The notes under the pieces are model-generated. The model saw only the letters and a list, made by a program, of their open reading frames with translations. It was not told the origin of the DNA and searched no databases. From Patescibacteria group bacterium (lineage in GTDB: Bacteria; Patescibacteriota; Microgenomatia; UBA8517): a stretch of 64,000 bases of DNA. A program made the position numbers and the translations under genes. Of this stretch, positions 27,966 to 60,105 are shown piece after piece. The stretch is from assembly GCA_022868165.1 (NCBI GenBank), contig JALHYA010000010.1:375-64374 (forward strand), written 5' to 3'. Each line of letters begins with the position of its first letter. Position 1 is the stretch's first letter.

Positions 27966-28095
27966 TACAGGGGCTTACAGCGAAATTATAGCAGGATTCA
28001 AGAAAACTCTCGACTTTCAGTCGGGAGATGAATTGAACGCTGATATGTCATTCTCCTTTAGAGGAAACCCCGCTCTTCAGAGCGGGCAGGATGTC
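27966..28095 (-). promoter_or_regulatory. Conserved module of about 120 nt upstream of a tRNA gene. Extended -10 'TGCTATAAT' lies immediately 5' of tRNA-Arg, plus two hairpins. Hairpin 2 also works as a terminator for the upstream PEGA gene: GCCCGCTC-TGAA-GAGCGGG then a T-rich run.
   Basis: About 75 percent identical to 59697-59815, with compensatory stem changes. The core 'CTTGAATsCTGCTATAAT' also occurs at 34337-34359 on the plus strand. Confidence 0.45.
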
Positions 28096-34269: not shown

Positions 34270-34377
34270 TTCGTCGCTGAAAGCTGCGATTGAAGCTATC
34301 CCAATAATGGTTTCTTCCTCCCCAAATCAAATTGCAGCGTCTTCTTGAATGCTGATATAATTAGTGGTTGTATTCCC

Positions 34378-35244: not shown

Positions 35245-36521
35245 AGTTATCATCAATTTTGGGTTTAAATGCCCGCACGCAGCTTTTTTCCTACCGTTAT
35301 AACACCCGTAAGGGCAAAAAAATTGCCGACTCGAAGCTTCAAACCGCGAAGATATTGAAAGTAACCGGCATTCCGCACCCCGTCATCTATAAAAAATTTC
35401 ACAAACTTTCCGATATCAACGAATTTGGTTGGAATACTCTTCCGGATTCCTTTGCCCTAAAGCCTTCCCGTGGCTTGGGCGGCGAAGGAATTGTAGTTGT
35501 CAAAAAGCGCGCCGGGGACGGCAACGGCTGGATTACTACCCAGAGGGCGCGGGTGACGATTGACGATTTAAAGCTTCAGGCATTGGACATTTTGGAAGGT
35601 GCCTACAGCATGGGCAACGAGCCCGACGTTGCTTTTGTGCAGGAATACGTCGGCCGTCATAAAGCTTTTCGAAGATATGCATACCGGGGCACTCCGGATA
35701 TTAGAATTATCGTATTTAATAAAGTTCCTATTATGGCGATGCTTCGACTTCCCACAAAAGAATCCGGGGGCAGGGCAAACCTTCATCAGGGAGCCATCGG
35801 AGTAGGAGTGGATATTGCCACAGGAATTACCACCAAGGCTATTTGGCATGGAAATTTAATCAAATTTAAGCCCGGAACGGAAAGAAAGCTCAACGGGATA
35901 AAAGTTCCGGAATGGACCAAGATATTGGAAACCGCGGTTAGGGCCCAGATGGCTTCGGGCTTGGGATATTTGGGAGTAGATATTGTGTTGCATCCGGAAA
36001 AGGGACCGATGGTTTTGGAGCTTAATGCCCAGCCCGGACTTCAGATTCAGCTTGCCAATATGGCGGGACTTAAAAAAAGAGTAGAAAGGGTTGAAGATTT
36101 GGAAGTTCGGGACGCGGAGCACGGCGTAAGAATTGCCAAGGCTCTTTTTGCCGAACGCTTTTCCGACAGGGTGAAAGCGGAGGAAGGCATTAAAACCGTT
36201 AGCGTCTGGGAGACTATAAAAATTGTTTCCGCAAAAGGAGAAAAGGTTGAAGTTAAGGCCAAGATAGATACGGGGGCATGGAAAACTTCCATCGACGAAA
36301 CCCTGGCCAAAAACCTCGGCATTTTGGGAAAAAGCAATGTGCTATGGACGCAGCTATATAAAAGTGGTCTGGGACAGGAGAAAAGAAAAGTAATAAGTTT
36401 GACATTTTATTTGGCTGGTCGAAGAATCAATACTTTGGCAAACGTTGCCCATAGGGAGCACTTGCGCTCGCCGGTAATAATCGGGAGACGTGATTTGGTC
36501 GGATTTCTGGTAAAATCTTAA
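35241..36521 (+). CDS. RimK-like (alpha-L-glutamate-ligase-related) ATP-grasp enzyme fused to a C-terminal retropepsin-like aspartyl-protease domain (DUF785, 'putative ATP-dependent zinc protease' family).
   Basis: ATP-grasp: 'SFALKPSRGLGGEGIVVV', 'VAFVQEYV' and 'LGVDIVLHPEKGPMVLELNAQPGL'. C-terminal 'VKAKIDTGAWKTSIDETLAKNLGIL' carries the D-T-G-A motif. Confidence 0.75.
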   Translation: MKLSSILGLNARTQLFSYRYNTRKGKKIADSKLQTAKILKVTGIPHPVIYKKFHKLSDINEFGWNTLPDSFALKPSRGLGGEGIVVVKKRAGDGNGWITTQRARVTIDDLKLQALDILEGAYSMGNEPDVAFVQEYVGRHKAFRRYAYRGTPDIRIIVFNKVPIMAMLRLPTKESGGRANLHQGAIGVGVDIATGITTKAIWHGNLIKFKPGTERKLNGIKVPEWTKILETAVRAQMASGLGYLGVDIVLHPEKGPMVLELNAQPGLQIQLANMAGLKKRVERVEDLEVRDAEHGVRIAKALFAERFSDRVKAEEGIKTVSVWETIKIVSAKGEKVEVKAKIDTGAWKTSIDETLAKNLGILGKSNVLWTQLYKSGLGQEKRKVISLTFYLAGRRINTLANVAHREHLRSPVIIGRRDLVGFLVKS

Positions 36522-36524
36522 TAA

Positions 36525-37451
36525 ATGAACAAACTACTTATCCTGATGGATAGAATTGGGCCTACGACCGAAACGCTTGCCGAATATGTTGGGCGTAATC
36601 TCGGAACCGATTCGCAGCTGGTTTTGGCCCGTTTTTCGGATCTTTTATTCGAACTTCAAGTGGGTAAGTGTAATGTATGGGTTGACGGCACCGGTATTAG
36701 GGAATTTAATCTTGTTTACTTCCGTAGGGTGGGACACGGGTTTCTTTCCACGGCAGGAACTCTTGCTTTGTGTCTTGATAATTTGGGTATAAAATATTTT
36801 GATACGAAATTTAGAGATATAGGCCCTGCGGGAGATAAATTTACTGCACTTACAAAATTGGGAATCGGGGGAATTTCCGTTCCTCACACAATGTATTTGT
36901 GGAAAAAAAACATTTCGGAACACAAGGGAGAAATATTAAAAAGATTGGGAAGCCCGGTTATTGCCAAGGATTATGCAAGCCAAAGGAATACAAAGATATT
37001 TATCTTGAAGGACACAAAAGATTTTGAACAATTAAAATCGGTAAAAATGGAAGAGCGGGAGGCGCAATTTCTTTTCCAGGAATTTATCGATATTGATAAA
37101 GAATTCAGGCTTCTGGTCATGGGAGATAAGGTGGCGGTAGTTCATACAAAAGCGGTTAGAGATTATACGGGTTTCCAGGTAGTGGATAATACGCCTTCGG
37201 ATAATTATGTCTTTATTGACCCCAAAGAAATTCCGGACCAGCTCAAAAAGCTGGCCGTTGCGGCAGCAAAAACTTTGGGAGTGGAAGTGGCCGGCGTAGA
37301 TGCGGCTATAGAGAAAAAGACCGGTAAAAGCTATATTCTTGAGGATAACCGCGGTCCGGGTTTTTTGCACGATCCCGCCAGGTCTCCGGAATTACCCGAA
37401 CTCGCAAAATTTTTTGCGAAAGAGCTTCGAAGCCCAAAATGGTTAAAATAA
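36525..37451 (+). CDS. Second RimK-like ATP-grasp ligase.
   Basis: 'GSPVIAKDYASQRNTKIFIL', 'LFQEFID...FRLLVMGDKVAVV' and 'VAGVDAAIEKKTGKSYILEDNRGPGF' are ATP-grasp signatures. Confidence 0.75.
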   Translation: MNKLLILMDRIGPTTETLAEYVGRNLGTDSQLVLARFSDLLFELQVGKCNVWVDGTGIREFNLVYFRRVGHGFLSTAGTLALCLDNLGIKYFDTKFRDIGPAGDKFTALTKLGIGGISVPHTMYLWKKNISEHKGEILKRLGSPVIAKDYASQRNTKIFILKDTKDFEQLKSVKMEEREAQFLFQEFIDIDKEFRLLVMGDKVAVVHTKAVRDYTGFQVVDNTPSDNYVFIDPKEIPDQLKKLAVAAAKTLGVEVAGVDAAIEKKTGKSYILEDNRGPGFLHDPARSPELPELAKFFAKELRSPKWLK

Positions 37452-37921
37452 CCAAGCTTAAAGAGGAAGAAGCAGGTATTTTTAGAAAACTCCTTTTGAA
37501 GATATTTATTGAAAGCTTTAGTTACTATCCTTTACGGGCCCAAAAGTTCAACAAAAGATACTGGAGTGTCGGACGGCTTACCCAATATAGTCATAAAAAG
37601 ATCATTTTATTGCTTTTGGCAAGAGAAGCTTCCTTGCCGGTAGGGCTATTAATCGGGAAGTATTATTCCTCGGGAAAGTCTTCAATTCTTTGGTTGGGGG
37701 TATTAATTACCCATAGAGGAAAAGGGATTGGCGCAAAGTTGGTGAAGCACTGGGAGGAGTGGGCGAAGGCCAAAGGCGTACACACATTTAGGACTTCCAC
37801 GGCCGATTTTCAAAACGAAAAGTTTTATAGCAAACTCGGTTTTACAAAATCGCCGGGTTTCGAAATGGATGATTGGGGCATGAAGAAGATGGTTTTTATT
37901 AAAAAAGAATACCATGGATAA
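37439..37921 (+). CDS. GNAT-family N-acetyltransferase.
   Basis: 'LGVLITHRGKGIGAKLVKHWEEWAKAKGV' is motif A (R-x-x-G-x-G/A). Overlaps both neighbouring genes. Confidence 0.7.
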   Translation: MVKITKLKEEEAGIFRKLLLKIFIESFSYYPLRAQKFNKRYWSVGRLTQYSHKKIILLLLAREASLPVGLLIGKYYSSGKSSILWLGVLITHRGKGIGAKLVKHWEEWAKAKGVHTFRTSTADFQNEKFYSKLGFTKSPGFEMDDWGMKKMVFIKKEYHG

Positions 37922-48147: not shown

Positions 48148-49389
48148 ATGTTCCGAAGAAAATATTTGGAGCTTATTAAAGACCCAGTTTGGTCAAGAGT
48201 TTATTCCCTTTCCCTGACTCTCTTTTTTGTAATGCTCGCGGATGCCATTGTTAGCTTTTGGGTACCTAATCTTTTGGAAGATACTTTTAAGAGTCCGATA
48301 ATGATGGGTCTTGTAATAAGTTTCCAATCCATAGTGGGTTTAGGCGCAGACATAATTTTCCCTACTCTTTTGCGGGCGGCAACAGTCAAGCGTTTTGTCG
48401 CCTGGGGCATAGTGGCAAGTATTTGTACTTCTTTAGCGCTTTTGGGAGCTACTTTTAGACCTTGGGTAGCAGTCTTTTTGATTGCAATGACTCTGTGGGG
48501 AATTTATTACGAATTTTTGGCTTTCGCCAAACACCAATTTGTAGCAGATGCGGTGCCGATTAAAGACAGGGCAGGAGCCTGGGGAATTCTGGGAGTTTTT
48601 ACAAATCTGGCTTATTTTTTGGGTCCGATGATTGGTGTCTGGATTTTGCTGATGGGAGTAAGGGCACCTTCATATGTTGCTATCTTTTTGACTTTAATTT
48701 CATTGGCAATTCTATTTCTTTCGGGCAAGACTCACGACAGGCCGATGAGTTTAAATATTGCGGAAGTAAATCTGGTTGCGGAATTGGATCATTGGAGAGC
48801 ACTTTTTGTCAGAGTATGGCCGATTATTATTTTGAGTTTGCTGTTGGGTTTTATAGACGCAACATATTGGACAATCGGCGCGGTTTTTTCCGTCAGTCTT
48901 GCCGAAAAGGGCATTTGGGGAGGGCTTTTTCTCCCCATGTATGCGTTGCCGTCGCTATTTATGGGATTTATTTTTGTTAAATGGGGAATTTATTCAGGTA
49001 AAAAGAAAATGGCAGAAAAATTCTTGCTGGCATCGGGTATTTTTTTGGCGGGAATTGCTGCAAGCAAGAATGTGATATGGCTATTAATTATGGTATTCCT
49101 CTCAAGCACAATGCTGGCGATTGTTTATCCTCTTGTCGACGGAGTTTATTCCGACATTGTTGCCAGAATGGGAAGAGAGAGAAAGCACCTGATTGGTTTA
49201 ACTTCCTCTACAATTAATCTTTCCTATGTTATTGCTCCAATAGTGGCCGGGCTTATTGCCTCGAAGGTTGGTGAGCAGATGACCTTTTCGGTTTTGGGTG
49301 GACTTACCATTTTTATTTCACTGGCACTTCTAGTTGTTACGCCCCGAAAGCTGAAACTGCCGCAAGAAGAAATCAAGACTTGGAATTAA
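48148..49389 (+). CDS. Major-facilitator-superfamily transporter.
   Basis: 413 aa, about 12 predicted TM helices, MFS-like loop motifs. Confidence 0.8.
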   Translation: MFRRKYLELIKDPVWSRVYSLSLTLFFVMLADAIVSFWVPNLLEDTFKSPIMMGLVISFQSIVGLGADIIFPTLLRAATVKRFVAWGIVASICTSLALLGATFRPWVAVFLIAMTLWGIYYEFLAFAKHQFVADAVPIKDRAGAWGILGVFTNLAYFLGPMIGVWILLMGVRAPSYVAIFLTLISLAILFLSGKTHDRPMSLNIAEVNLVAELDHWRALFVRVWPIIILSLLLGFIDATYWTIGAVFSVSLAEKGIWGGLFLPMYALPSLFMGFIFVKWGIYSGKKKMAEKFLLASGIFLAGIAASKNVIWLLIMVFLSSTMLAIVYPLVDGVYSDIVARMGRERKHLIGLTSSTINLSYVIAPIVAGLIASKVGEQMTFSVLGGLTIFISLALLVVTPRKLKLPQEEIKTWN

Positions 49390-49535
49390 AGTTGGCGGCT
49401 TGAAATTTAGGCTCGTGCGTGCTATATTAACCTATAGCAATCGCTAGGCACTACTAATCACATGCGATTAAGGAGGCAAACGGAGAGCGAGCTAGCACAT
49501 TTTTAACGATCACGCCCGTACGATTCAATCCGCCC

Positions 49536-49796
49536 ATGAACAAGGAGGGTATTGAAATGCCAATGCAGTTGAAATCGTACCCGTTGGTTCATCCGCCCAG
49601 TCAGTCGACGGAAAAAGCAATCCTAGAAATGATTGCCTATCAGACCGATATGAACTGGGGAAAAGCCCCGATCAAGATTCGCGTTAACGCGAACGCTTTT
49701 CCAAATGGAGCACCGGACAAAATCGGCGACTTGCCGGTTGAGGTCAACTGTTCCGTACGGCCGGGCTGGCTCGAGCTGGTTGAAGCCGAGTATTAG
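49536..49796 (+). CDS. Small hypothetical protein (86 aa) directly upstream of the ATP-grasp/C39 pair.
   Basis: ORF preceded by a 'TGCTATATTAAC' -10-like sequence. No motif. Confidence 0.35.
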   Translation: MNKEGIEMPMQLKSYPLVHPPSQSTEKAILEMIAYQTDMNWGKAPIKIRVNANAFPNGAPDKIGDLPVEVNCSVRPGWLELVEAEY

Positions 49797-49921
49797 GGTG
49801 TGATCAAGGAATGATCGTTTGGGGGGATGACCTGCCACAAGCAATTTTTCGCAGGCTTCCCCCCTTAGTTCTTCTTTTTCCCCGCCACTTGTATTTCCGA
49901 CCTCACTTTAGTTAAATTAAA

Positions 49922-50977
49922 GTGCGTTATTTCATGGCTACAAAGGACATCCCGAAAAAGGTAAGGCTTCAAAGCGATAAGGAAGCGCTCAAAAAGTTCA
50001 AACTGGTTGTTGTTGCCTATTCGCATGTGGAGCGGGAATGGTTTCCCACGGAAGATGCTTACTACGCCGAAGTTGAAGTGGAAGAAAGGGCGCAGGATGT
50101 TGTCGAAAAAATAAAGGATTTGGGGATTGAAGCCAAGGGGCTTCCCGGAGACCAATATTTTTTGACAAATCTTCTGGTCGATAAACCCGACCTTGTTCTT
50201 AATTTAGTCGACACCTTAAGGGGCAAGGACCGCCTTCAGACCTCCGTGCCTGCCGCTTTGGAGCTTTCAAACATTCCCTATACGGGTGCGAGCATGGAGG
50301 GAATGATAATCGGAAATGACAGGAATTTGACCAAAAGGCTTCTGGTTGCCTATGACATTCCCACTCCGCCGTTTCAATTCAGAAGAAGAGTCGGCAAGGC
50401 AATTGATGAAACTATTGGGCTTCCCTTAATAGTCAAACTCAATGCAAGCGGGGGAAGTGTCGGAATAGACAACCACGCAGTTAAAGAAACCGTTAAAGAG
50501 GCCGAAAGAAAAGCGGACCAAATGATAGAGCTATACAAACTGCCGGTGGTTGTCGAGAGATTTGTAGACGGGCCAGAAATCACCGTTGTGGTTTTTGATG
50601 ACGGAAGCAAAAAACATGTTTTTATGGGAGAGAAAATATTTAAGAAAAAACCTGACGGAAAACACTTTTTCACCTCAATTGAATCATATGACGACGAGGA
50701 TGCCTACCACTACAAATTTGTTCCGGAACCCCTGTGCTCAAAAATAGCAAAACTGGCAGTTCGTGCTTTTAACGGTCTTCATCACAACGACTACGCAAAG
50801 TTTGATATAAGAATAGAGGATTCTACAAACACTCCATATTTCACCGACTCCAATCCCAACACCGCTTTTGGCCCCGATTTGGGCCTTCCCTTTACGGAGG
50901 TATTAAAATTACACGATATCTCTTTTGAGGAAGTTTTGACAAGCTTGCTCTCTAAGTATGCAAAGAACCTTCCTTAA
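49922..50977 (+). CDS. D-Ala-D-Ala-ligase-like ATP-grasp enzyme.
   Basis: 'LPLIVKLNASGGSVGIDNHAV', 'VVERFVDGPEITVVVF' and 'YAKFDIRIED' fit the Ddl-family three-domain ATP-grasp layout. Confidence 0.75.
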   Translation: MRYFMATKDIPKKVRLQSDKEALKKFKLVVVAYSHVEREWFPTEDAYYAEVEVEERAQDVVEKIKDLGIEAKGLPGDQYFLTNLLVDKPDLVLNLVDTLRGKDRLQTSVPAALELSNIPYTGASMEGMIIGNDRNLTKRLLVAYDIPTPPFQFRRRVGKAIDETIGLPLIVKLNASGGSVGIDNHAVKETVKEAERKADQMIELYKLPVVVERFVDGPEITVVVFDDGSKKHVFMGEKIFKKKPDGKHFFTSIESYDDEDAYHYKFVPEPLCSKIAKLAVRAFNGLHHNDYAKFDIRIEDSTNTPYFTDSNPNTAFGPDLGLPFTEVLKLHDISFEEVLTSLLSKYAKNLP

Positions 50978-51557
50978 TCCGTACTTTCCGACGATGCGAA
51001 GGGTGAGGCAAAAAACTTCATCCCATTGTGCGCCGGCGGTTCTCGAGATGCTGGCAAGCTATGTTGGGAAGGATGTAGACCAAGACGCTTTTGTGGAAGC
51101 GGCCGAAGCTACCGAAAAACTTCGTGTTTACGGTATGACAGTGGATGAAATGGGAAGGGCGGTAACGCGGCTTGTGCCCGACGTCCAGTTTTGGTACAAG
51201 CATCACGGCACGCTTTCGGAACTAACCGAAATTGTCAGAATACATAAATATCCGGTCGGAATTGAATGGCAGGGAGTTTTTTATGAAGATGCAGACGAAG
51301 ACAACGGCCACTACAGTATTGTTACTCACATTGACACGGTTAATAACATCATAGTTTTGGCCGACCCCTACAAGCGTTTTGCCGGGTCCGACAGGAGCTT
51401 CCATGTTTTGGAATTTGAAGAACGCTGGTGGGACGAAAACGAAATCATAGATACTTGGAGCCGGAAACACAATATAGTTAGAGACGAACACACAATGTTT
51501 ATAATTACTCCCAAAGACGTTTTCTTTCCCGAATATTTGGGAATGTATCGGGGATAG
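50958..51557 (+). CDS. Papain-fold C39-like / BtrH-like cysteine peptidase or transferase domain protein.
   Basis: Cys in 'SSHCAPAVLEMLASYVG', His in 'NGHYSIVTHID' and Asp in 'IVLADPYK' reproduce the C39 Cys-His-Asp spacing and contexts. 20-nt overlap with the ATP-grasp gene. Confidence 0.6.
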   Translation: MQRTFLNPYFPTMRRVRQKTSSHCAPAVLEMLASYVGKDVDQDAFVEAAEATEKLRVYGMTVDEMGRAVTRLVPDVQFWYKHHGTLSELTEIVRIHKYPVGIEWQGVFYEDADEDNGHYSIVTHIDTVNNIIVLADPYKRFAGSDRSFHVLEFEERWWDENEIIDTWSRKHNIVRDEHTMFIITPKDVFFPEYLGMYRG

Positions 51558-51597: not shown

Positions 51598-51939
51598 TCA
51601 CCTAAAAAAGAAGACTCCGAGGATAACCAAGATGACAAAAAATGCCAACCAGCCCGTAGTGTAGATTATTAAATTGATTGCTTTCTTCGTTTGCTTGTTT
51701 TCCCACCACAAAATAAACGGGCAGTAGCCGAAGATGAGTGCGCAAATTATTGCGGAGATGACGAAAAGAAGAAGGAAGAGCGTGGGGCCGAGAAAGGTAA
51801 CTACCGGTCCGAAAAACCGCGCGCCTTTCCAAAAGATTAGTCCGATTAAGCTTGAATAAAGGGTAAGCCCGAGAGCTTGAAGGAAAGCAATAAATCCGAG
51901 CGAAAGTTTCTTCATAAAATATATTGTAGCATTTAGCAT
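51598..51939 (-). CDS. Small membrane protein (3 TM).
   Basis: Hydrophobic 113-aa ORF. Confidence 0.45.
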   Translation of the reverse strand: MLNATIYFMKKLSLGFIAFLQALGLTLYSSLIGLIFWKGARFFGPVVTFLGPTLFLLLFVISAIICALIFGYCPFILWWENKQTKKAINLIIYTTGWLAFFVILVILGVFFFR

Positions 51940-52074
51940 AATTAATATTTATAAACAATGAATAAACAAAATGCCGACGGAAGCGTTACAGCCCAAAATA
52001 TTCAACTTAATCCTATCCGGCGAGACGGGGTTACAGCGACGCCTACGCCGATGTAAAATCTATTACCAACAAAA

Positions 52075-53046
52075 TTGCTGGGAAAAAATTCTTACACTAG
52101 TAATGGGAGAAGTAAGGCACAAAATAGGTGGCTAATATATTTATTGGTGCTTGATATTGCGGTATTAACCACCGTTTCTGTTCTATTCAAAAGATATCTA
52201 GACAATAGAAATATATCTCCGCCCGCATCTATTCTTCCCACGCCTACACCTATATCTTCGCCTCAAATTTCAGAGGGAACACAAAATACTAATTCTTTGG
52301 GAAACGTAATTCAAAATTCTCTTGGAGACGCCGATGTAGTATATGGGGTGGTAGTAAAAAATCTCAAGAGCTCCGAGGCCTCTTATATCAATGAGCATAG
52401 AAACTTCAACGCGGCAAGCCTCTACAAATTATGGGTGATGGCCACGGTTTACAAGCAGATTCAAGACGGCAAATTGAAAGAAGATGATATTTTGAGCGAA
52501 GATGTCAGTGTATTAAACAACATTTTTAATATCGATACCCAATTCGAAACTTCCACCGGGACGATTACGCTTACTGTTCGCGAGGCGTTAGATGAGATGA
52601 TTACCGTTTCAGACAATTATTCTGCACTTTTGCTTTCTGAAAAGATTGGTCTTTCCGCAATTTCATCCTTCTTGAACGAAAATGGATTTAACGAATCGAG
52701 TATAGGCTCTAGTGGAGGTTCGCCAACGACAACCGCATACGACACAGCGCTCTTTTTTGAAAAACTTTATAAAGGAGACCTCGCAAACGATAAATACACG
52801 AACGAGATGCTTGCTTTGTTAAAATCCCAGCAACTAAACGACGAAATACCCAAATACCTTCCACCCGAGGTAACCGTAGCCCACAAGACGGGGATGATAG
52901 ACAACTCTCTTCACGATGCGGGAATAGTATATTCGCCGAAAGGAGATTATATAATTGCAATCCTTTCCGAAGGTACCTCTTCAGAAGACTTTTCCGAGAA
53001 AATAGCCCAATTATCGAAAGTTGTTTACGATTACTTCAGCTCCTAG
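52075..53046 (+). CDS. Class A beta-lactamase-like serine hydrolase with an N-terminal TM/signal anchor.
   Basis: SxxK 'AASLYKLW', SDN 'VSDNYSA' and KTG 'AHKTGMIDN' occur in the canonical order. Confidence 0.75.
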   Translation: MLGKNSYTSNGRSKAQNRWLIYLLVLDIAVLTTVSVLFKRYLDNRNISPPASILPTPTPISSPQISEGTQNTNSLGNVIQNSLGDADVVYGVVVKNLKSSEASYINEHRNFNAASLYKLWVMATVYKQIQDGKLKEDDILSEDVSVLNNIFNIDTQFETSTGTITLTVREALDEMITVSDNYSALLLSEKIGLSAISSFLNENGFNESSIGSSGGSPTTTAYDTALFFEKLYKGDLANDKYTNEMLALLKSQQLNDEIPKYLPPEVTVAHKTGMIDNSLHDAGIVYSPKGDYIIAILSEGTSSEDFSEKIAQLSKVVYDYFSS

Positions 53047-53239
53047 GAGCATCGCCACCGCGCAGGTCTATCGTCTGGAGCACTTGGGGAGTAATTTCTT
53101 CTCCGGCCTTGAATTTCTCGACGCCAACCTTCATCCAGTCCGGAACAGAAGGGTCGGTCATATCGAAGTTATTCTCGGCAGCGTGCTCGATGCAATATCG
53201 GCGTGCCTGAAAAAATTTGTCTTCGAGTTCTACTCCCAT
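53036..53239 (-). CDS. Small hypothetical protein downstream of the CN hydrolase.
   Basis: 67-aa ORF only. Confidence 0.3.
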   Translation of the reverse strand: MGVELEDKFFQARRYCIEHAAENNFDMTDPSVPDWMKVGVEKFKAGEEITPQVLQTIDLRGGDAPRS

Positions 53240-53292
53240 TGTGGCGTTAGTATAGCAACGAAGAATTTGTCAATCAAGCAAGCCTTTGTATA

Positions 53293-54045
53293 TTAACTTC
53301 GAACAATTTTTACCAAATCAGTCCGCTCTTGTTGGAGATAGTGATTAGACGTGGACGATAAATCAATGTTTTCTGTGTGTACTTCTTCTTTTTGGGGTGT
53401 TGATTGCCAGACGATTTTTCCATAAGGGTCAATAATCATTGAGCACATTGTTTGTGGAGATGCTGCGTTATTTACGCTGCAAACCCAAAATTGATTTTCA
53501 AATGCGCGAGCAACTAATATTTGTTCCCATATCTTATCGCTTTCTTTTATGGCATTGTTTACATGAAAGATGACTTGGGCTCCGTTCTTTTTAAGAATCT
53601 TCCATTGTTCTGGAAAAATAAGCTCTCTGCACATTTGGATTCCAAAACTGACATTCTCTTCTTTGTAGGTTTTCAATTCGTTCCCGGCAGAAAAGTGATT
53701 TCTATCTGGAATACTCAAATTATTTTTTCGATAAATTATTTTTTGATTGGGGTTTATAAAGATAGTACAGTTATACCAGTTATTATCCAATTTTAAGGCT
53801 GAACCAACTAGACAATTTATATTTTTTTCCTTAGTTATTTTGTCAACTTTGTCGAGGGCTTGTTCAATAGCATTTGAGTTAAGTTGAGACAAAAAAGTTT
53901 CTTCTTCTGGATAGTATCCAGAAATCATTCCTTCCGGGAAAAGGACCCATTCATTAGAAGAAGAGTTTTGCAAAATCGAAATGACCTTGTCTAAATTAGT
54001 ATGAATATCCTTTGATACGGAGACTTGTGCAATGCGTACTTTCAC
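53293..54045 (-). CDS. Carbon-nitrogen hydrolase (nitrilase superfamily).
   Basis: 'WVLFPEGMISGY' supplies the Glu, and 'QMCRELIFPE' the Cys, of the E-K-C triad. Confidence 0.8.
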   Translation of the reverse strand: MKVRIAQVSVSKDIHTNLDKVISILQNSSSNEWVLFPEGMISGYYPEEETFLSQLNSNAIEQALDKVDKITKEKNINCLVGSALKLDNNWYNCTIFINPNQKIIYRKNNLSIPDRNHFSAGNELKTYKEENVSFGIQMCRELIFPEQWKILKKNGAQVIFHVNNAIKESDKIWEQILVARAFENQFWVCSVNNAASPQTMCSMIIDPYGKIVWQSTPQKEEVHTENIDLSSTSNHYLQQERTDLVKIVRS

Positions 54046-54126
54046 ACACAGATTATAGCAACTTTAGTAAAAAGGTCGACCAGAGTATGCAGGGGCTAGT
54101 AAACTATGTCAGGAACTTCTTTTTAT

Positions 54127-54456
54127 CTAATTGGACAAACTTTCAAGATATTTCTTTATTGCAACTGCGGTAATACCCCATGCCAGTGGAAGCCAGTAAG
54201 GAATACCAAAAATAGTTACTCCATGATAAGTCCATAAACCACTTTTTGAAACAATTGCTTCGCCTAGTGGACCAAAAACTGCAGCAACAATGAAGTAATA
54301 GATTTCCTTGTCTTTTTTCAGGAATGCACAATAAATAATGCTAATTAAAAGTAGTATGACAAAAAGATGAATAGGGTATTCCCAAAGATAAGAGATAGAT
54401 ACTATCCAGGTAATAAAGAATGTAACAAACAGAAGATGAACTTTTATCTTTTTCAT
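54127..54456 (-). CDS. Small membrane protein (3-4 TM).
   Basis: Hydrophobic 109-aa ORF in the low-GC region. Confidence 0.45.
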   Translation of the reverse strand: MKKIKVHLLFVTFFITWIVSISYLWEYPIHLFVILLLISIIYCAFLKKDKEIYYFIVAAVFGPLGEAIVSKSGLWTYHGVTIFGIPYWLPLAWGITAVAIKKYLESLSN

Positions 54457-54603
54457 CTAATTAAAGTATATCACTCGAGGCTATTTTGCAGGCATTAGTA
54501 CACGACCTTCGAACGATTTGGCATAAAATCAGTTCTTTCGAGCTGGGTAAAATGGCTCAGTTTATCAATCCTTCTGTGAACTTGGCTTATTGATACAATA
54601 TAC

Positions 54604-56205
54604 TTGATGAAACTATTCAATTTAGACTTAGTTAAGGGTGAGTTTTACTCTGAACTAAATCCTGAAATTACATTTGAAACGCTTACTCAAGGAGGTAGGC
54701 AGATTATTACTTGGAAGTGTTCTAAGGGCGATGATCATATTTGGGAAGCAAGCTTAAATCAGAGAACAAGCGGAAATAAACTAAGAGGTTGTCCAGTTTG
54801 TGCTGGGAAAAAAGTAGTAACAAGCAATTCTCTTTTAACAACTAATCCTGAAATCGCAAAGGAATGGAATTATGAAAGAAATAAAACCATTACTCCTTCA
54901 ACCATAACTTATGGTAGCAATAAGAAGGTGTGGTGGCAGTGCTTAGTTAATGAATCGCATGTTTGGTTAGCCTCACCAAAGCAAAGAGTTAACAATAATA
55001 CTTGTCCGCATTGCGACTCGTTACAGGTTAAATATCCAGATATTGCAAGAGAATGGCATCCGACTAAAAATAACTCGTTAAGACCGCAAGATATTGCTTC
55101 TTCATCCCATACCAAAGTTTGGTGGAAATGTGAGAAAGGAGTAGATCATGTGTGGCTATCATCGCCTAATACACGAGTTTCTAATAAAAGTGGTTGTCCC
55201 ATCTGTTCAGGATATAAAGTTGTAAAGAGTAATTGTTTAGCAATAACACATCCAGAACTGTCATCTCAGTGGGATTATGTTAAAAACGCGAATAATCTTA
55301 CTCCCGAAAATGTACATGCAGGTAGTCATAAAAAGGTGTGGTGGAGATGTCCTAAGGGGGATGATCATAATTGGGAATCTGTAGTTAAAACACGAGCAAA
55401 ACAAGGAGTTGGATGTCCGATCTGTAGTGGTCGAAAAGTAAGCCTAAGTAATTCATTGGCCACAAAAGAACCTGTCATTGCCTCTCTTTGGCATCCTACA
55501 AAGAATGAACCATTGAACGCTTACCAAGTAACTCCGTATTCAGGTCAATTGGTTTGGTGGAAGTGTCCAGAAGGTGAAGATCATGAGTGGAAAAGTACTG
55601 TTGCTAACCTTGTAAATGGAAGCTCTTGTCCTGTGTGCATGAATAGAAAAATTACAAAGAATAATAATCTTTTTGCTCTATTCCCTGATTTGAAAGATGA
55701 GTGGGATTTCGAAAAGAATAAGGATGTCAACCCAGTCACATTATCTGCTGGTAGCAGGATGAAGGTGTGGTGGGTTTGTAAACGAGATCCTGAACATATG
55801 TGGTTCTCTACAATCAAAGACAGAACAGCAAAAGAAAGTGGCTGTCCTTACTGCTCCATAAAACTCAATGTCTCAGAGCTGAAAATGTTAGGAATAATCA
55901 AACAACTATTTGAAGGAAAAGAAATACTATATAGATATAAACCAAAATGGCTAAACAGAATGGAACTGGATGTGTATGTCCCTGAACTGAAATTAGCTTT
56001 CGAATATCAAGGAGCTCAGCATATCAGGCCGATTGATTTCTTTGGAGGTGAGATGGTTTATATCGAACAGGTAAAAAGGGATCAATTAAAAAAGAATATC
56101 TGCCACGAAAGAAATGTAACGCTTCTATATTGTTACTTTGACGAAAAATTGAGCTTAGGTTTGATTAAATCTAAAATAGATGATTCAGGCATTACTCTTA
56201 TTTGA
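54604..56205 (+). CDS. Protein with about 8 tandem zinc-ribbon repeats (DUF4379-like treble-clef, 'WW.C..G..H.W.......G..CP.C') and a C-terminal Vsr/DUF559-like PD-(D/E)xK endonuclease domain.
   Basis: Repeats such as 'KVWWKCEKGVDHVWLSSPNTRVSNKSGCPICSG'. C-terminal 'MELDVYVPELKLAFEYQGAQH' matches the DUF559 core (D..lP...laiE.DG.qH). Confidence 0.65.
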   Translation: MMKLFNLDLVKGEFYSELNPEITFETLTQGGRQIITWKCSKGDDHIWEASLNQRTSGNKLRGCPVCAGKKVVTSNSLLTTNPEIAKEWNYERNKTITPSTITYGSNKKVWWQCLVNESHVWLASPKQRVNNNTCPHCDSLQVKYPDIAREWHPTKNNSLRPQDIASSSHTKVWWKCEKGVDHVWLSSPNTRVSNKSGCPICSGYKVVKSNCLAITHPELSSQWDYVKNANNLTPENVHAGSHKKVWWRCPKGDDHNWESVVKTRAKQGVGCPICSGRKVSLSNSLATKEPVIASLWHPTKNEPLNAYQVTPYSGQLVWWKCPEGEDHEWKSTVANLVNGSSCPVCMNRKITKNNNLFALFPDLKDEWDFEKNKDVNPVTLSAGSRMKVWWVCKRDPEHMWFSTIKDRTAKESGCPYCSIKLNVSELKMLGIIKQLFEGKEILYRYKPKWLNRMELDVYVPELKLAFEYQGAQHIRPIDFFGGEMVYIEQVKRDQLKKNICHERNVTLLYCYFDEKLSLGLIKSKIDDSGITLI

Positions 56206-58375
56206 GGTAATGACATTTTTTATATTTTTTTCCACTTCCACAATAGCATGGGTCATTTCTACCAATCTTCCTGGAGATCATTTGTCCAGGTTTAATCATC
56301 ACATCAGCAAGTTTTTGGAGTTTTGGGTCTTCATGCCATGGTTCATTAGAATACACGACTGAATCGATTATATTGGGACTTTCGGCATAGCTACCTAATC
56401 CTAACCACTCATCAGCTTTTGTAATGTACTTCCTGGAAACTGAATAAGCCATAATATGCTCATGCAGACCCTTCCTTCTCTCATATTCCACAACATATGT
56501 GATACCTCCTTTACCATGATCCAAAGGCATTGCCATGGAATGTGGGCCATGGTCACTTAAAGCTTTTGTTTTAGCAGACTCCATCATTTTGATAAGAGTA
56601 TCTGCTGTCTTGCTGGAAAGGGTATATAAAAAGAAAATTGCATCAGTTAATCCTGGCTCTTTTGAAGCTTTGATCTGCGTTATGAGCTTAGTAAAGCTTT
56701 CATTCTTCCATTTTTGTCTGATCTTACTTTTTTTCTTATCTTCCTCTGATCCATACCTTTGTCTCATGACATCATCATCAATTACTTGTCCAAAATCTTG
56801 AACAAGAGCTATATGGGTAGCGTCAGAAGCAGGGTCGATATACAGTTTTTGATCTAAGTGATAGCCAAGACTTGTAATTTCAGTACCACCCATAATTTTA
56901 TCAGCAAGTTTTACTCTCTGATTAACGTAATAGAGAAAATCATATGGGTCTGGTAAATACGTAGTTAGTAAATCCAAATCAAATATGTTCATCGCAATTG
57001 GCCATGGATCACTTTCTTTTCTTTCTAAAAAAGCGTGCACCTGCATATAAAGAGCAGGGTAATTGTCAGTTGTAACGGAAACGATATAAGCTTCGTTGAT
57101 AGACTCGTGTAGCTTGATTTCATTGCCATTTGCATCGATAAACACCGCATCACGAGCTAAAATGTGCTGTTTTGATTCAAGGCCTTGTTCATAGGCCTCT
57201 TGTACAGCCTTTCGAAAGTCAATTCCTAATTGGTTGAGATCACCTTTTCGAGATAGAAAAGTCATTTTTTTGGATTTTGCTTGGACTGCAATTGCTTTGT
57301 TACCAAGTAGAACCAGGACATCAACATCTGTAAAGACTAATCCTTTCTTTTTTATACCTTCACCTTTTTGTCTTTGGATTTTTGCACCTTTATAGACATT
57401 AGATTCACCAAAAACTCGTTTAAGTTTTTGAAAAGCTACTTCTTCGGTATATTCACCTCTATGCTTCTGTGCTGTTGGAAAGTATTTTTCATCAAGCTCC
57501 TTTACCCAATAAAAAGGGCTTTCATCGATTGCCCTGGATAAGTCAAAGGAAACAGGAAGCAAATAGTTTGTATCTGAAATCCTTATTAGTGGCTTAGTTT
57601 CTATCTCATTAGAATCAGATGGGGCTCTAAACGATTTGTTGCTTTTTCCTGGTACAACTGAGAAACGAGTAGCAATTTTTTGAGCAACGGTCTTATCGAA
57701 ACCTATCTCATCAGTGTTAACGGTAAATATACTCAAAACCCACTCACAAAAAGATCGAAAATCACTTTTTTCTGGAGGTTCAGGTCGTATCCTTTCAGCA
57801 GATTCTTTTACTGTTTTAGAAAACAAAACCGCATCTTCAATTGAAAAACCAAGATGCTCGATAATCCACTCCTTATCTTTGGCGTATCTTACTGGTGCAG
57901 ATTCCCAATACTGGAAGTCGTACGCACCTGAATCTCCATAAAATACAGATTCCACAATTGCTTCTGATGATGTGAATATACCCGGACGGGGAGGTATCGG
58001 TAGGCCTTGCTCCTTACGTTTCATTGTTTTTTCAATCATAGAGCTGAAAGCTGTTAGGCTATAATAATCATGCACTTTTTGGAGTAGAGGATATGTCTGA
58101 TCAATGTACTTTTTAGCAGTTTCTTCGTCTGGTACAGTTTCCAAATCTAAGGGTCTTTTGATTACGAGACCAAAAAGTAGTCCTACTTCTTGGTAACTTA
58201 CTCTGTCCCACCAATTTACATTTAGGTATTGGTCTAATGGAATGAATAAGTCATGAAGCGTAATTATCAAAAGTGAGTACAAATAACCAGGTTTACTCAC
58301 AAGCTCTTCCAGCTCTTTAAGTGTCGTTTCTAAGTTAGGTATTTTCCCTGCATCATCTTTATCTTTTTTTGCCAT
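56198..58375 (-). CDS. 725-aa protein with a central NERD/PD-(D/E)xK-like segment (tentative) and a C-terminal SEC-C zinc-binding motif.
   Basis: C-terminal 'RNDPCYCGSGKKYKKCH'. Central 'GEYTEEVAFQKLKRVFGE...LVFTDVDVLVLLGNKAIAVQAKSKK' resembles the NERD layout. Confidence 0.55.
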   Translation of the reverse strand: MAKKDKDDAGKIPNLETTLKELEELVSKPGYLYSLLIITLHDLFIPLDQYLNVNWWDRVSYQEVGLLFGLVIKRPLDLETVPDEETAKKYIDQTYPLLQKVHDYYSLTAFSSMIEKTMKRKEQGLPIPPRPGIFTSSEAIVESVFYGDSGAYDFQYWESAPVRYAKDKEWIIEHLGFSIEDAVLFSKTVKESAERIRPEPPEKSDFRSFCEWVLSIFTVNTDEIGFDKTVAQKIATRFSVVPGKSNKSFRAPSDSNEIETKPLIRISDTNYLLPVSFDLSRAIDESPFYWVKELDEKYFPTAQKHRGEYTEEVAFQKLKRVFGESNVYKGAKIQRQKGEGIKKKGLVFTDVDVLVLLGNKAIAVQAKSKKMTFLSRKGDLNQLGIDFRKAVQEAYEQGLESKQHILARDAVFIDANGNEIKLHESINEAYIVSVTTDNYPALYMQVHAFLERKESDPWPIAMNIFDLDLLTTYLPDPYDFLYYVNQRVKLADKIMGGTEITSLGYHLDQKLYIDPASDATHIALVQDFGQVIDDDVMRQRYGSEEDKKKSKIRQKWKNESFTKLITQIKASKEPGLTDAIFFLYTLSSKTADTLIKMMESAKTKALSDHGPHSMAMPLDHGKGGITYVVEYERRKGLHEHIMAYSVSRKYITKADEWLGLGSYAESPNIIDSVVYSNEPWHEDPKLQKLADVMIKPGQMISRKIGRNDPCYCGSGKKYKKCHYLK

Positions 58376-58780
58376 ATTATCAAGCTAATTTGTGCTTCTA
58401 TTTTATCACAAGAGTTGAGTAAGAGATGACCCATAGTTGCTTTTTCAAGGACGATTTAGTAGTATTTTATTAGGCTAAACATTTAGCTTTTTCGACAGCT
58501 TTTGTCGAAACGGAAATAGGTTTCGTATACATACGAACCAGAGCTGGTAAACTCTGAAATAGCCAAGCACAAGACTGCTGATAGAGCTTATAAGCAGGAG
58601 ATTGAAGGGTTTTTGACCTTCTGCAATCTAGTTCCGAAGCTATTTGCAAGTTCGAGACCGGCCTTACAAAGGGAGTTACTTAGATTCGTTGTCTCGAACG
58701 TTTCTGTGAGGGATAAAAAGGTCGAATATACGCTTAAAACACCCTTTGACCTAGTAGCCAAGTACTCTCAAAGTGAGAAT

Positions 58781-58854
58781 TGGCAGGGGTGGTAGGAATC
58801 GAACCTACGTTCGAGGTTTTGGAGACCTCCGGCCTACCACTGACCGACACCCCT
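58781..58854 (-). tRNA. tRNA-Trp (anticodon CCA), CCA encoded.
   Basis: RC folds as AGGGGTG-TC-GGTC-AGTGGTA-GGCC-G-GAGGT-CTCCAAA-ACCTC-GAAC-GTAGG-TTCGATT-CCTAC-CACCCCT-G-CCA. Closely parallels E. coli tRNA-Trp. Confidence 0.8.
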
Positions 58855-58945
58855 AAGTTTATACTGATTTTCTCTTGAATCTCCCTTGTATTTTATCCTA
58901 AGTGGCTAGTAAGCTCAAATATAGCTTGTATGATATATCATTATA

Positions 58946-59350
58946 TCATCCAAGGTTTTGGAGCGTTCGGAGGATATCTTTCCTGGGGGAAACATCTAGA
59001 ATTTTCTTAACGGCTTCCTTTAAAGCCTTCAAATTTTGCCACTTAGCGAGCTTGGAAATAACAAAACTTTTGTCGCTTGCCGGTATTTCGAGAAGTTGTA
59101 GTTTGATTCTGGATACCGTTTGTCTGGTTGTGTTTGTAAATTCGGCAATTTTATCTTGATTTACCCCTTCAGATAAGAGAAGCATGATTATTGCCCTTTT
59201 TCGAAGCATTTCCTGCTCGGTTTTTGTTAGAAGTGTAGAGAAAGTTTTTATGACTTTTTGACGCTCCAGGCTGGTAAAAATTGTCAATAATGCTTCTTGA
59301 AAAAGCTCGTTATTTTTAGAAGAAAGTTTTTTTCTGGAAACGTGAGTCAT
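58946..59350 (-). CDS. Small helix-turn-helix DNA-binding protein, TrpR/YerC-like or sigma-region-4-like.
   Basis: 'SEGVNQDKIAEFTNTTRQTVSRIKLQLLE' is a C-terminal HTH. Confidence 0.55.
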   Translation of the reverse strand: MTHVSRKKLSSKNNELFQEALLTIFTSLERQKVIKTFSTLLTKTEQEMLRKRAIIMLLLSEGVNQDKIAEFTNTTRQTVSRIKLQLLEIPASDKSFVISKLAKWQNLKALKEAVKKILDVSPRKDILRTLQNLG

Positions 59351-59622
59351 GTATCATATAATGATATATCATCAATAAGCGGATTGGCAAGGCTGGTGGG
59401 TTTTTAAACTTTTATTTAAGCTTGGAAGTTTCCTTGTGAGGCGTAACCTTTCTGCAGGTTCTGCAGTACTTATTTAATACCAGTTTTCCCTCCATATTAA
59501 TCTTATTCCGCTCTGTTATGTAGTTTTGGCTCTTGCAGACGGAACAAATCAAAGCAACCAGCTCTCTTGCACCTTTTTTTGCCATACGTTGGATATTCTA
59601 TCACACCTTGAGCTCGAACGAG

Positions 59623-59694
59623 AGCCGAGGGTGGGAATCGGACCCACGACCTAGTCATTACCAATGACTTGCTCTGCCACTGAGCCACCTCGGC
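59623..59694 (-). tRNA. tRNA-Thr (anticodon GGT), no encoded CCA, atypical T-loop TCCGATT.
   Basis: RC folds as GCCGAGG-TG-GCTC-AGTGGCA-GAGC-A-AGTCA-TTGGTAA-TGACT-AGGTC-GTGGG-TCCGATT-CCCAC-CCTCGGC-T. The 61-aa ORF 59503-59688 ('WVRFPPSAL') is its antisense shadow. Confidence 0.6.
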
Positions 59695-59696
59695 GC

Positions 59697-59815
59697 AAGG
59701 GAATTATAGCAGCATTCAAGAAGACGCTGCAATTTGATTGCGGCGATGAATTGACGCTGATATGTCATTCTCACTTAGGTGCGAAGCCGCGAAAGCGGAG
59801 AATGCCATAACAAAT
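59697..59815 (-). promoter_or_regulatory. Second copy of the conserved tRNA-upstream module: extended -10 'TGCTATAAT' directly 5' of tRNA-Thr(GGT), plus two hairpins.
   Basis: Aligned with 27966-28095. Shared blocks 'GAGAATGACATATCAGCGT', 'CAATTCATC' and 'TCTTGAATsCTGCTATAAT', with stem covariation between them. Confidence 0.45.
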
Positions 59816-59945
59816 GCTGTTATACTTAGATATGATTCGATGGCAGGCTCTGTTCTTGATTTTAGCCGGGATTATACTAATTCTTCTTATCTATATCCTC
59901 AAAATCCACCCACCAAAGATGTAGCAGGCACGAACGAATGTGAGT

Positions 59946-60030
59946 GCCAAGGCTAGGATTCGAACCTAGGTAGGCCTTTCGACCGCCAGATTTACAGTCT
60001 GGTGCGATTGTCCGCTCCGCCACCTTGGCC
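59946..60030 (-). tRNA. tRNA-Tyr (anticodon GTA), class II long variable arm, no encoded CCA.
   Basis: RC folds as GCCAAGG-TG-GCGG-AGCGGACAA-TCGC-A-CCAGA-CTGTAAA-TCTGG-CGGTCGAAAGGCCTAC-CTAGG-TTCGAAT-CCTAG-CCTTGGC-A. Confidence 0.75.
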
Positions 60031-60105
60031 TGGAGCCGACGAGAGGATTCGAACCTCTGACTTGCTGTTTACAAAACAGCTACTCTACCGCTGAGTTACG
60101 CCGGC
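60031..60105 (-). tRNA. tRNA-Thr (anticodon TGT), CCA encoded, abutting tRNA-Tyr.
   Basis: RC folds as GCCGGCG-TA-ACTC-AGCGGTA-GAGT-A-GCTGT-TTTGTAA-ACAGC-AAGTC-AGAGG-TTCGAAT-CCTCT-CGTCGGC-T-CCA. Confidence 0.8.

Follow-up and report, generated by a model that had tools for sequence, protein, structure and literature searches.

A conserved gene pair encoding a Ddl-related ATP-grasp ligase and a C39-like papain-fold protein in Microgenomatia

Genes and features of the locus

The window considered here, i.e., the whole stretch of DNA that was analysed (64,000 nucleotides), carries on its forward strand three successive open reading frames of 86 aa (49536–49796), 351 aa (49922–50977) and 199 aa (50958–51557). 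The three frames, the 20-nt overlap of the last two and the Cys, His and Asp motifs of the 199-aa protein are all present as given in the initial annotation. The core components are the 351-aa protein, a Ddl-related ATP-grasp carboxylate-amine ligase, and the 199-aa protein, a C39/phytochelatin-synthase-like papain-fold protein (the peptidase, below). Their genes share positions 50958–50977 (forward strand), from the peptidase start to the ligase stop; the two frames differ within this overlap and no Shine-Dalgarno sequence precedes the peptidase start, an arrangement that points to translational coupling. The ligase frame opens with GTG, and the in-frame ATG at 49934 may be its true start.

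The first of the three frames was proposed earlier to encode a substrate or carrier for the two enzymes, a role that the data do not sustain. A better start for it is the ATG at 49557 behind AAGGAGG, hence the product is more likely 79 than 86 aa long. It has no match in Pfam or NCBIfam, it is missing from 88 of 89 related loci, and a search of 5.8 billion proteins returned one match, the identical 79-aa form. In locus L010 a 1-nt indel deletes the first ATG, and six non-synonymous changes stand beside one synonymous change; this dN/dS comparison draws on one 98%-identical relative and is suggestive only. Between this frame and the ligase gene a GC-rich hairpin followed by a U-rich tract (49821–49879, forward strand; −24.5 kcal/mol, z −2.6) is kept in sequence in L010 and looks like a terminator that would part the two transcription units. 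A promoter-like site (49400–49428, forward strand; TTGAAA, 17-nt spacer, TG-extended TATATT) lies upstream of the short frame, 10 of 12 positions matching, as a consensus match only. An Rfam scan across the 532 nt that precede the ligase gene gave nothing above chance. The short frame is a strain-specific orphan, unrelated to the conserved module and not part of it.

Further upstream, an MFS transporter gene (48148–49389, forward strand; Pfam MFS_1, 6e-27) represents a recurrent, non-obligatory neighbour: in 8 of the 72 non-redundant loci a gene of this kind (48–55% identical) stands directly upstream of the pair in the same orientation, and it possibly imports the substrate or exports the product. 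Downstream, a small membrane protein gene lies on the minus strand (51598–51939). It was considered as a core partner and rejected, because no more than about 11 of the fetched loci have it, at variable positions.

Families and active sites of the two enzymes

The 351-aa protein matches Pfam Dala_Dala_lig_C (E 2e-15), and among characterised enzymes the dipeptide ligases Ddl, the Van ligases and an L-amino-acid ligase are closest to it. Its best PDB sequence matches are Ddl enzymes, at just 53–64 bits. When compared with E. coli DdlB (reference sequence checked against PDB 2dln), residues K172, E212, E219, D295, D309 and N311, invariant in 121 sequences, correspond to the ATP/Mg2+ ligands K144, E180, E187, D257, E270 and N272, with D309 as a conservative E-to-D change at E270. 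The part of the protein that would receive D-alanine is different. Among the D-Ala1/D-Ala2 residues tested (E15, S150, Y216, R255, S281, L282 and H63), E15 alone is kept, Y216 being possibly kept as well if the alignment is shifted by one. DdlB positions S150, R255, H63, E68 and G276 are replaced by G, K, R/K, L and A, respectively, and S281/L282 by variable residues/G or by L/P, depending on the alignment; with the exception of position 281, the replacements are invariant in the family. The initial annotation of a Ddl-like ATP-grasp enzyme thus stands as to family and intact ATP/Mg residues, but most D-Ala-binding residues are replaced and the protein falls far below the Ddl cut-offs of NCBIfam (TIGR01205, 90.7 bits vs 243; NF002378, 85.4 bits vs 245.65). 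By these criteria it is best classified as an ATP-grasp ligase nearest to D-Ala-D-Ala ligase and not as a canonical Ddl. The AF2 model of the ligase reached a pLDDT of 57, because the alignment consisted only of sequences of 71–86% identity, and the model was set aside.

The ligase falls into a clade of its own, whose relatives include proteins of Dojkabacteria and Aenigmarchaeota. Ligase relatives at 31–40% identity carry the same signature residues and sit in operons with several ligases, GNAT acyltransferases and peptidases. In locus L093 a C39-like gene (43.8 bits to the C39 profile) is accompanied by a FemAB-like GNAT, three ATP-grasps and a lysine-aminomutase-like radical SAM gene, in L092 an ATP-grasp stands with a GNAT and an S66 peptidase, and in L094 three ATP-grasps occupy the syntenic slot that the pair holds in L004 and L008. 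The phmmer search of the fetched loci (local windows) with E. coli DdlB found no canonical Ddl, matching the ATP-grasp family itself alone. When a canonical Ddl of Microgenomatia was sought among distant phmmer matches, those with a named source belonged to Firmicutes, Myxococcota, Ozemobacter and an archaeon, and the supplement of one study contains no ddl entry (PMC7143001).

These data bear on a conservative explanation, according to which the ATP-grasp is a very divergent housekeeping D-Ala-D-Ala or D-Ala-D-X ligase, with the C39-like protein acting in the cytoplasm as a murein-peptide amidase to edit or recycle precursors. It is rather unlikely, given scores of 85–91 bits against curated cut-offs of 243–246, the family-invariant replacements at D-Ala-binding positions and the existence of relatives as three tandem paralogues. 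An Aenigmarchaeota relative, 40% identical, has the same signature residues as well; archaea are not expected to make murein. Public databases loosely name the ligase "D-alanine-D-alanine ligase". Resistome surveys of these genomes tally many Van/Ddl-like matches (PMC8651080), and the present ligase may be among them. Recognising that it is not a canonical Ddl would correct an annotation that feeds into what is inferred about peptidoglycan, and about resistance to glycopeptides, in the candidate phyla radiation.

The 199-aa protein was thought earlier to reproduce the C39 catalytic triad contexts, which is borne out: the motifs SSHCAPA (Cys24), NGHYSIVTHI (His118) and VLADP (Asp136) are present, and these three residues with Gln18, the predicted catalytic residues, are invariant in the family. 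The predicted structure is a confident papain fold (pLDDT 91.5), as the earlier reading had supposed, with a beta-rich C-terminal addition of roughly 50 residues beyond the C39 domain. As to the choice between C39 and BtrH, Peptidase_C39 (24.8 bits, cut-off 22) and Peptidase_C39_2 (25.3 bits, cut-off 24) are both matched in Pfam, whereas BtrH_N is not. The closest proteins are C39 peptidase domains, the phytochelatin-synthase-like Alr0975 and PeiR, with BtrH/CtaG clearly more distant; UfSP proteases are also related in fold. Alr0975 (PDB 2bu3/2btw) is the top match by both sequence profile (E 2e-4) and Foldseek (E 3e-7), and its Cys-His-Asp and Gln-x5-Cys spacing aligns with that of the 199-aa protein. 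The latter is predicted to be an active cysteine amidase or transpeptidase. When the sequences were read by eye, no obvious hydrophobic N-terminal signal or transmembrane stretch was seen in either enzyme, and the peptidase is probably cytoplasmic.

Linkage, conservation and neighbours of the pair

The C39-like gene lies directly downstream of the ligase gene in 58 of the 72 non-redundant loci; in the rest it is elsewhere in the locus (1), cut off by a contig end (7) or absent (6). The pair is thus kept together in about 90% of the informative related loci, so the expected conservation of context is found. The overlap recurs as well: in 44 of the 72 fetched loci with the pair, a set counted before de-replication and different from the 72 non-redundant loci, the peptidase match begins within a stretch that runs from 16 nt ahead of the end of the ligase frame to 5 nt past it. 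One 524-aa protein, P0241, joins the ATP-grasp and C39 parts on a 2.2-kb contig, and a frameshift error where the two genes naturally overlap could have produced this fusion. Six lineages hold the ligase without an adjacent peptidase, therefore the ligase can work alone. The pair is specific to Microgenomatia (Patescibacteria), a very large class whose ultra-small, uncultivated members have reduced genomes, and it is undescribed in the literature searched.

Across Microgenomatia the identity of the ligase is 67–79%, compared to 68–92% for ribosomal protein S21, 54–66% for RNase HII, 48–55% for the MFS transporter and 42–64% for the C39-like protein. The ligase is about as conserved as S21, which favours a housekeeping role, in the envelope or another core process, over secondary metabolism; identity this high class-wide makes a central role likely.

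The pair frequently comes with a GNAT acyltransferase, which is either joined to the peptidase in one protein or encoded upstream; the GNAT+C39 fusions occur in six non-redundant lineages. This GNAT belongs to Acetyltransf_3, the family of RimJ and RimL. In 12 loci rpsU (S21) lies within a few kb of the pair. One may ask if the pair then acts on a protein, the ATP-grasp adding one or more amino acids to a housekeeping protein as RimK or tubulin-tyrosine ligase do, the peptidase removing them and the RimJ/RimL-type GNAT serving the same target. Such a writer and eraser would fit the ribosomal-protein-like conservation of the ligase, the Acetyltransf_3 membership of the GNAT and the vicinity of rpsU, and C39 domains and the structurally related UfSP proteases act on proteins or peptides, normally cutting them after small residues. 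However, the characterised enzymes closest to the ligase are without exception small-molecule ligases, no target gene recurs consistently beside the pair, and the vicinity of rpsU may reflect no more than synteny of related genomes, which leaves the proposal improbable.

Around the pair, the 72 non-redundant loci hold no conserved precursor peptide, small ORF or carrier protein, and no ABC transporter fused or adjacent to the C39-like gene. It is for this reason that two readings offered by the initial annotation fail. In the first, a thiotemplated pathway of the BtrJ/BtrH or CtaD/CtaG kind, the ATP-grasp would load or extend an acyl group on a carrier and the papain-fold enzyme transfer it to an acceptor. 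The logic of the enzyme pair is identical, but with no conserved carrier, a 86-aa frame that is an orphan, no BtrH_N match and CtaG a much weaker structural match, this pathway is very improbable. In the second, likened to leader-processing RiPP systems, the ATP-grasp would modify a ribosomal precursor and the C39 peptidase cut its double-glycine leader. The C39 matches in Pfam agree with it and C39 domains are possible in graspetide clusters (PMC8939145); yet there is neither a conserved small ORF nor an ABC-transporter fusion or neighbour, the ligase is Ddl-like, and class-wide conservation at the level of a ribosomal protein does not suit a secondary-metabolite gene, so that a RiPP cassette is hardly credible. 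PADLOC and PHROGs searches gave zero matches, thus a defence-system or phage origin is not indicated. The earlier functional interpretation is, as a whole, partly supported: the ligase/peptidase pair stays, and the 86-aa frame, the RiPP likeness and the BtrJ/BtrH logic are given up.

Proposed function and comparison with known systems

The explanation that we prefer, with somewhat better than even confidence, is a cytoplasmic two-enzyme module of ligase and amidase or transpeptidase, specific to Microgenomatia, that acts on a small peptide. Its product is probably a small non-ribosomal peptide, which the second enzyme would trim or transfer. This retains from the earlier ligation-and-trimming cassette its couple of ligase and cysteine enzyme and drops the 86-aa frame as a member. 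With ATP the ligase would convert a carboxylate into an acyl-phosphate and couple this to an amine. The resulting amide or peptide bond would lie in a small substrate (an amino acid, a short peptide or a peptide that resembles a cell-wall precursor) other than the canonical pair of D-Ala and D-Ala. Its C39-like partner would work on the ligase product via a Cys24 thioester, either hydrolysing or trimming it, as in a synthetase/amidase couple, or handing the acyl part to another amine in a phytochelatin-synthase-like transpeptidation. A third component in many lineages would be the GNAT N-acyltransferase, whether as a fusion with the peptidase or from an upstream gene, and in some lineages the MFS transporter would be attached. 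We infer the substrate shared by both enzymes, its small-peptide nature and the direction of the peptidase step; that both enzymes have relatives with small substrates (Alr0975 with glutathione, the dipeptide ligases) supports a small substrate.

Besides the lineages in which the ligase lacks an adjacent peptidase, two further points weigh against the small-peptide module. A ligase coupled to an enzyme that hydrolyses what it has made would squander ATP if the couple were not regulated, and ligase conservation this high is unusual for a small-molecule enzyme. The latter would be explained by the target of a carrier-free ligase or tagging machine, in which the acyl-phosphate passes to a Cys24 thioester and further to an amine on a macromolecule, such as a housekeeping protein or a cell-wall precursor. 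This mechanism is distinctly improbable, and if true it would constitute a Microgenomatia-specific modification system. In any case, the tie of the ligase to a predicted cysteine amidase/transpeptidase, and often to a GNAT, defines a two- or three-enzyme system, which could turn out to represent an unusual chemistry of cell-wall peptides, the source of a novel small peptide metabolite or a novel system of modification.

Among known systems, GspS and TryS physically couple an ATP-grasp ligase to a papain-like cysteine amidase that cleaves the amide made by the ligase (PMC2427367), and the conflict of synthesis and hydrolysis in the present pair therefore has a precedent. The likeness, a cytoplasmic ATP-grasp/papain-like amidase coupling with a small-molecule substrate, is one of architecture and logic alone: the pair has no GSP_synth or CHAP matches in Pfam, so its domains are not homologous to those of GspS/TryS at the family level, and it consists of two overlapping genes, ligase first, often with a GNAT added. 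The substrate of Alr0975 (NsPCS) is glutathione, a small peptide that an ATP-grasp enzyme synthesises; the acyl-enzyme which Alr0975 forms is then hydrolysed or its acyl group transferred. From the C39 leader peptidases (ComA, PCAT1, LahT) the 199-aa protein differs in being standalone, with no ABC transporter and no precursor, and in bearing the C-terminal extra. With DdlB and the Van ligases the ATP-grasp shares the conserved ATP/Mg2+ ligands and E15, while scoring far below the Ddl cut-offs and having most D-Ala-binding residues swapped for other invariant ones. The pair also differs from graspetide/microviridin systems, since it lacks a conserved precursor and the best family of its ligase is Dala_Dala_lig_C. 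CtaG is a BtrH-like papain-fold ligase that works with the ATP-grasp CtaD (PMC7183216; PMC12865890), and what BtrJ/BtrH and CtaD/CtaG have in common with the present pair is an ATP-grasp combined with an enzyme of papain fold whose task is to form or transfer amide bonds and not just to break down proteins (PMC7183216; PMC12865890).

Gene layout and linkage of the pair

The three open reading frames (ORFs) described in the initial annotation lie exactly where it had placed them, all on the plus strand: an 86-aa ORF (49536–49796), a 351-aa ATP-grasp ligase with the Pfam domain Dala_Dala_lig_C (49922–50977; E 2e-15) and a 199-aa C39-like peptidase (50958–51557). The 20-nt overlap of the ligase and peptidase genes is present, the two frames differ, and inspection of the sequence before the peptidase start revealed no Shine-Dalgarno sequence. 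The window derives from a Patescibacteria genome, and a deposited protein identical to the peptidase is named 'cysteine peptidase family C39 domain-containing protein [Patescibacteria group bacterium]'.

When peptidase homologues with available upstream sequence were looked up, the ligase was directly upstream in every case. A metagenome scan with the ligase alignment supplied 80 more loci, and after de-replication at 97% identity 72 loci were obtained. The C39-like gene is directly downstream of the ligase in 58 of them and elsewhere in the locus in one; its state is cut off by the contig end in seven (one with a cut-off GNAT gene downstream), and it is absent from six in which at least 700 nt of downstream sequence is present. 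Before de-replication, 44 of the 72 fetched pair-carrying loci have a peptidase match that starts no more than 16 nt ahead of, or 5 nt beyond, the ligase ORF end, thus the overlap geometry itself is conserved. An exhaustive phmmer search also returned one 524-aa ligase-peptidase fusion, a singleton on a 2.2-kb contig that is possibly a frameshift artefact. All-against-all clustering of flanking ORFs found no other gene accompanying the pair throughout. The named relatives are Woesebacteria, Collierbacteria, Chisholmbacteria and Shapirobacteria, all of the class Microgenomatia.

The ligase, the peptidase and their relatives

The ligase scores 85–91 bits against the NCBIfam Ddl models, whose cut-offs are 243–246, and among solved structures its best relatives are Ddl enzymes (53–64 bits); Van ligases, PurD and an L-amino-acid ligase come next. 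When 121 members of the family are aligned with DdlB of E. coli (the D-Ala-D-Ala ligase, its sequence confirmed against PDB 2dln), the nucleotide and Mg2+ ligands K172, E212, E219, D295, D309 and N311 are invariant and E50 (DdlB E15) is retained. At the D-Ala-binding positions of DdlB the family has different, likewise invariant residues (S150 to G178, R255 to K293, H63 to R/K100, E68 to L105, G276 to A315), the counterpart of S281/L282 is variable/G or L/P depending on the alignment, and the omega-loop is unlike that of DdlB. Since the catalytic ligands are invariant and the D-Ala positions are fixed as other residues, the protein is predicted to be a catalytically active member of the Ddl branch: an ATP-grasp carboxylate-amine ligase whose substrate site has been remodelled. 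The family alignment is too uniform for a usable AlphaFold2 (AF2) model of the ligase (pLDDT 57), so that all statements on the pocket rest on sequence. Many family members, e.g., the ligases of loci L062, L071, L072, L077 and L049, carry variable Lys/Glu/Pro-rich N-terminal tails of 20–60 residues before the conserved core; the window ligase has none.

The earlier assignment to the D-Ala-D-Ala ligase family holds as far as the branch and its catalytic residues are concerned, but the Ddl cut-offs are missed and the D-Ala site is replaced. A divergent housekeeping Ddl acting with a murein-peptide amidase is a less probable reading, judged on local windows around the genes; the module formed by the overlapping genes fails the defining tests for Ddl. 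In loci sharing several genes, identity to the window is 67–79% for the ligase and 68–92% for ribosomal protein S21, with 54–66% for RNase HII, 48–55% for the MFS transporter and 42–64% for the peptidase, and the ligase family forms a single full-length cluster in a library clustered at 50% identity. This S21-like identity and the single cluster indicate slow evolution, unlike that of secondary-metabolite enzymes, and point to a core cellular role.

Second-tier relatives of the ligase (31–40% identity) share its signature residues, which in DdlB numbering are G at S150, W/Y at Y216, K at R255 and D at E270, along with a D-x-N-x-N motif; only beyond them do canonical Ddl sequences appear. Named members belong to Dojkabacteria, unclassified Patescibacteria and an Aenigmarchaeota archaeon. 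The operon of locus L093 (3562–9159) encodes a 154-aa C39-like peptidase (43.8 bits against the C39 family profile), a FemAB-like GNAT (Acetyltransf_6), three Ddl-like ATP-grasps in tandem and a radical SAM protein similar to lysine-2,3-aminomutase. Its make-up resembles an assembly line for stepwise non-ribosomal peptide synthesis that may use beta-lysine. In locus L092 an ATP-grasp gene is accompanied by a GNAT gene and, in convergent orientation, a gene for an S66 peptidase (LD-carboxypeptidase/MccF-type). In L094 (3917–7038) three paralogous ATP-grasps of the ligase clade, one divergently oriented, fill the syntenic slot (Transglut_core, holin, SecG, SBP_bac_5) that carries the ligase-peptidase pair in L004 and L008; in L090 and L091 the ligase is on its own. 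What recurs in these loci is the step-by-step building of peptides by ATP-grasp ligases, independently of the ribosome, in company with a GNAT and a small-substrate peptidase.

As for the peptidase, the Cys, His and Asp contexts quoted in the initial annotation are all present, and Q18, C24, H118 and D136 are invariant among 35 sequences (39–83% identity to the window protein), together with R15, W79, K81, E103-W104-Q105-G106, D145-R146, W157 and N161. The papain fold is supported by an AF2 model (pLDDT 91.5, pTM 0.88), for which Foldseek placed the glutathione acyl-enzyme of Alr0975, a phytochelatin-synthase-like protein, first (E 3e-7), C39 domains next and CtaG of closthioamide synthesis at 8e-4; the family profile against PDB sequences likewise gave Alr0975 as the best match (E 2e-4) with catalytic residues aligned. 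On the choice between C39 and BtrH, this ranking of Alr0975 and C39 ahead of CtaG speaks in favour of membership in the C39/phytochelatin-synthase/PeiR group. No obvious signal peptide or membrane segment was seen when the sequence was read by eye. A carrier-dependent pathway similar to that of BtrJ and BtrH, whose logic had been invoked earlier, shares the enzyme pairing, but the module fails the defining tests for BtrH systems and such a pathway is very improbable.

The upstream insertion and neighbouring genes

The 86-aa ORF has no family match in Pfam or NCBIfam, its one match among 5.8 billion proteins is an identical 79-aa form, and among related loci it occurs only in L010, a contig 98% identical in DNA. 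There a 1-nt indel shifts the annotated ATG out of frame, thus any real start would be the ATG at 49557, behind a strong AAGGAGG. Seven base differences separate the two copies, six non-synonymous and one synonymous, at a density close to that of the non-coding flanks. The ORF has its own promoter-like site, and a terminator-like hairpin (−24.5 kcal/mol, z −2.6) with a U-rich tract separates it from the ligase gene. Elsewhere about 40–80 nt lie between the end of the MFS gene and the start of the ligase gene, which places the ORF in a lineage-specific insertion, of roughly 530 nt between these genes in the window. The element at 49400–49879 may be either a strain-specific small gene or an sRNA. 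A conserved role as substrate or carrier, suggested earlier, is ruled out for this orphan. The resemblance to leader-peptide-processing RiPP systems did not survive either: the module does not pass the defining tests for leader-peptide C39 systems and graspetides, and a RiPP cassette is hardly credible.

In eight lineages, including the window, an MFS gene lies directly upstream on the same strand, 48–55% identical to that at 48148–49389. In six non-redundant lineages the downstream protein is a 380–435-aa fusion of a GNAT (Acetyltransf_3) to a C39-like domain, with catalytic residues intact in the one inspected (L009); searches with a profile of the fusion GNAT also brought up ten lineages in which a standalone copy immediately precedes the ligase gene, but no GNAT of this type in the window's 64 kb.

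Convergent with the peptidase gene is that of a 113-aa hydrophobic protein (51598–51939, minus strand) with no family match; its relatives occur at variable positions in about 11 related loci (42–63% identity). At 52075–53046 (plus strand) lies a class-A beta-lactamase/PBP-like protein (Beta-lactamase2, E 1e-45), well under all NCBIfam beta-lactamase cut-offs; class A beta-lactamase-like genes were found to be numerous in Microgenomates (PMC8651080). In a 533-aa protein (54604–56205, plus strand), six treble-clef zinc-finger repeats of the DUF4379 family (E 6e-103) are accompanied by a C-terminal region without Pfam match. GC content is 0.37–0.40 in 52000–60000 and 0.42–0.50 in most of the remaining window, and since this stretch ends at four tRNA genes (58784–60105, minus strand), it may be an acquired island; two further tRNA genes are at 27825–27974. 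A separate amidoligase-type cluster (34345–37921, plus strand) encodes, in one direction, a 7TM_transglut membrane protein, an ATP-grasp of the ATPgrasp_ST family whose tail weakly matches Zn_protease, another ATP-grasp that is RimK-like, and a GNAT. A giant 3258-aa ORF (7969–17745, minus strand) adjoins a 167-aa protein (17748–18251, minus strand) with only phage-integrase N-terminal SAM-like domains.

Proposed mechanism and known systems

With moderate confidence, we favour a three-step model in which ligase and peptidase, with GNAT or MFS proteins where encoded, make, process or move a small amide- or peptide-bonded product. The ligase would first activate a carboxylate as acyl-phosphate and join it to an amine, a chemistry that follows from ATP-grasp family membership and the intact catalytic residues. 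Cys24 of the peptidase would then attack an amide bond of this product or a close relative. The acyl group would end up either on water, as in trimming or a synthetase/amidase cycle under regulation, or on a second amine, as in transpeptidation. The grounds for this step are the linkage and overlap of the genes, the fusion, the intact catalytic residues and the resemblance to Alr0975. A GNAT, where one is encoded, may acylate the shared substrate at an amino group, and substrate or product may be carried by the MFS protein. That the two enzymes are instead writer and eraser of a protein modification is considerably less probable.

On computational evidence, the module is a lineage-wide, slowly evolving, predicted ligase-amidase(-GNAT) unit in a major uncultivated class. 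We found no description of the pair in the literature searched, and an earlier mention elsewhere is possible. By its fold, the peptidase belongs to the C39/PCS/PeiR group, as a standalone protein. According to a recent classification, standalone C39_2 proteins are found near MFS and other transporters, and fusions with GNAT domains are frequent in DUF3335, a related papain-like family (PMC10318531). BtrJ/BtrH of butirosin and CtaD/CtaG of closthioamide synthesis have the enzyme pairing in common with the module, but require carrier proteins (PMC7183216, PMC12865890). The closest precedent in logic, by analogy only, is the glutathionylspermidine/trypanothione synthetase-amidase, in which an ATP-grasp synthetase is joined to a papain-like cysteine amidase acting on the same amide (PMC2427367).
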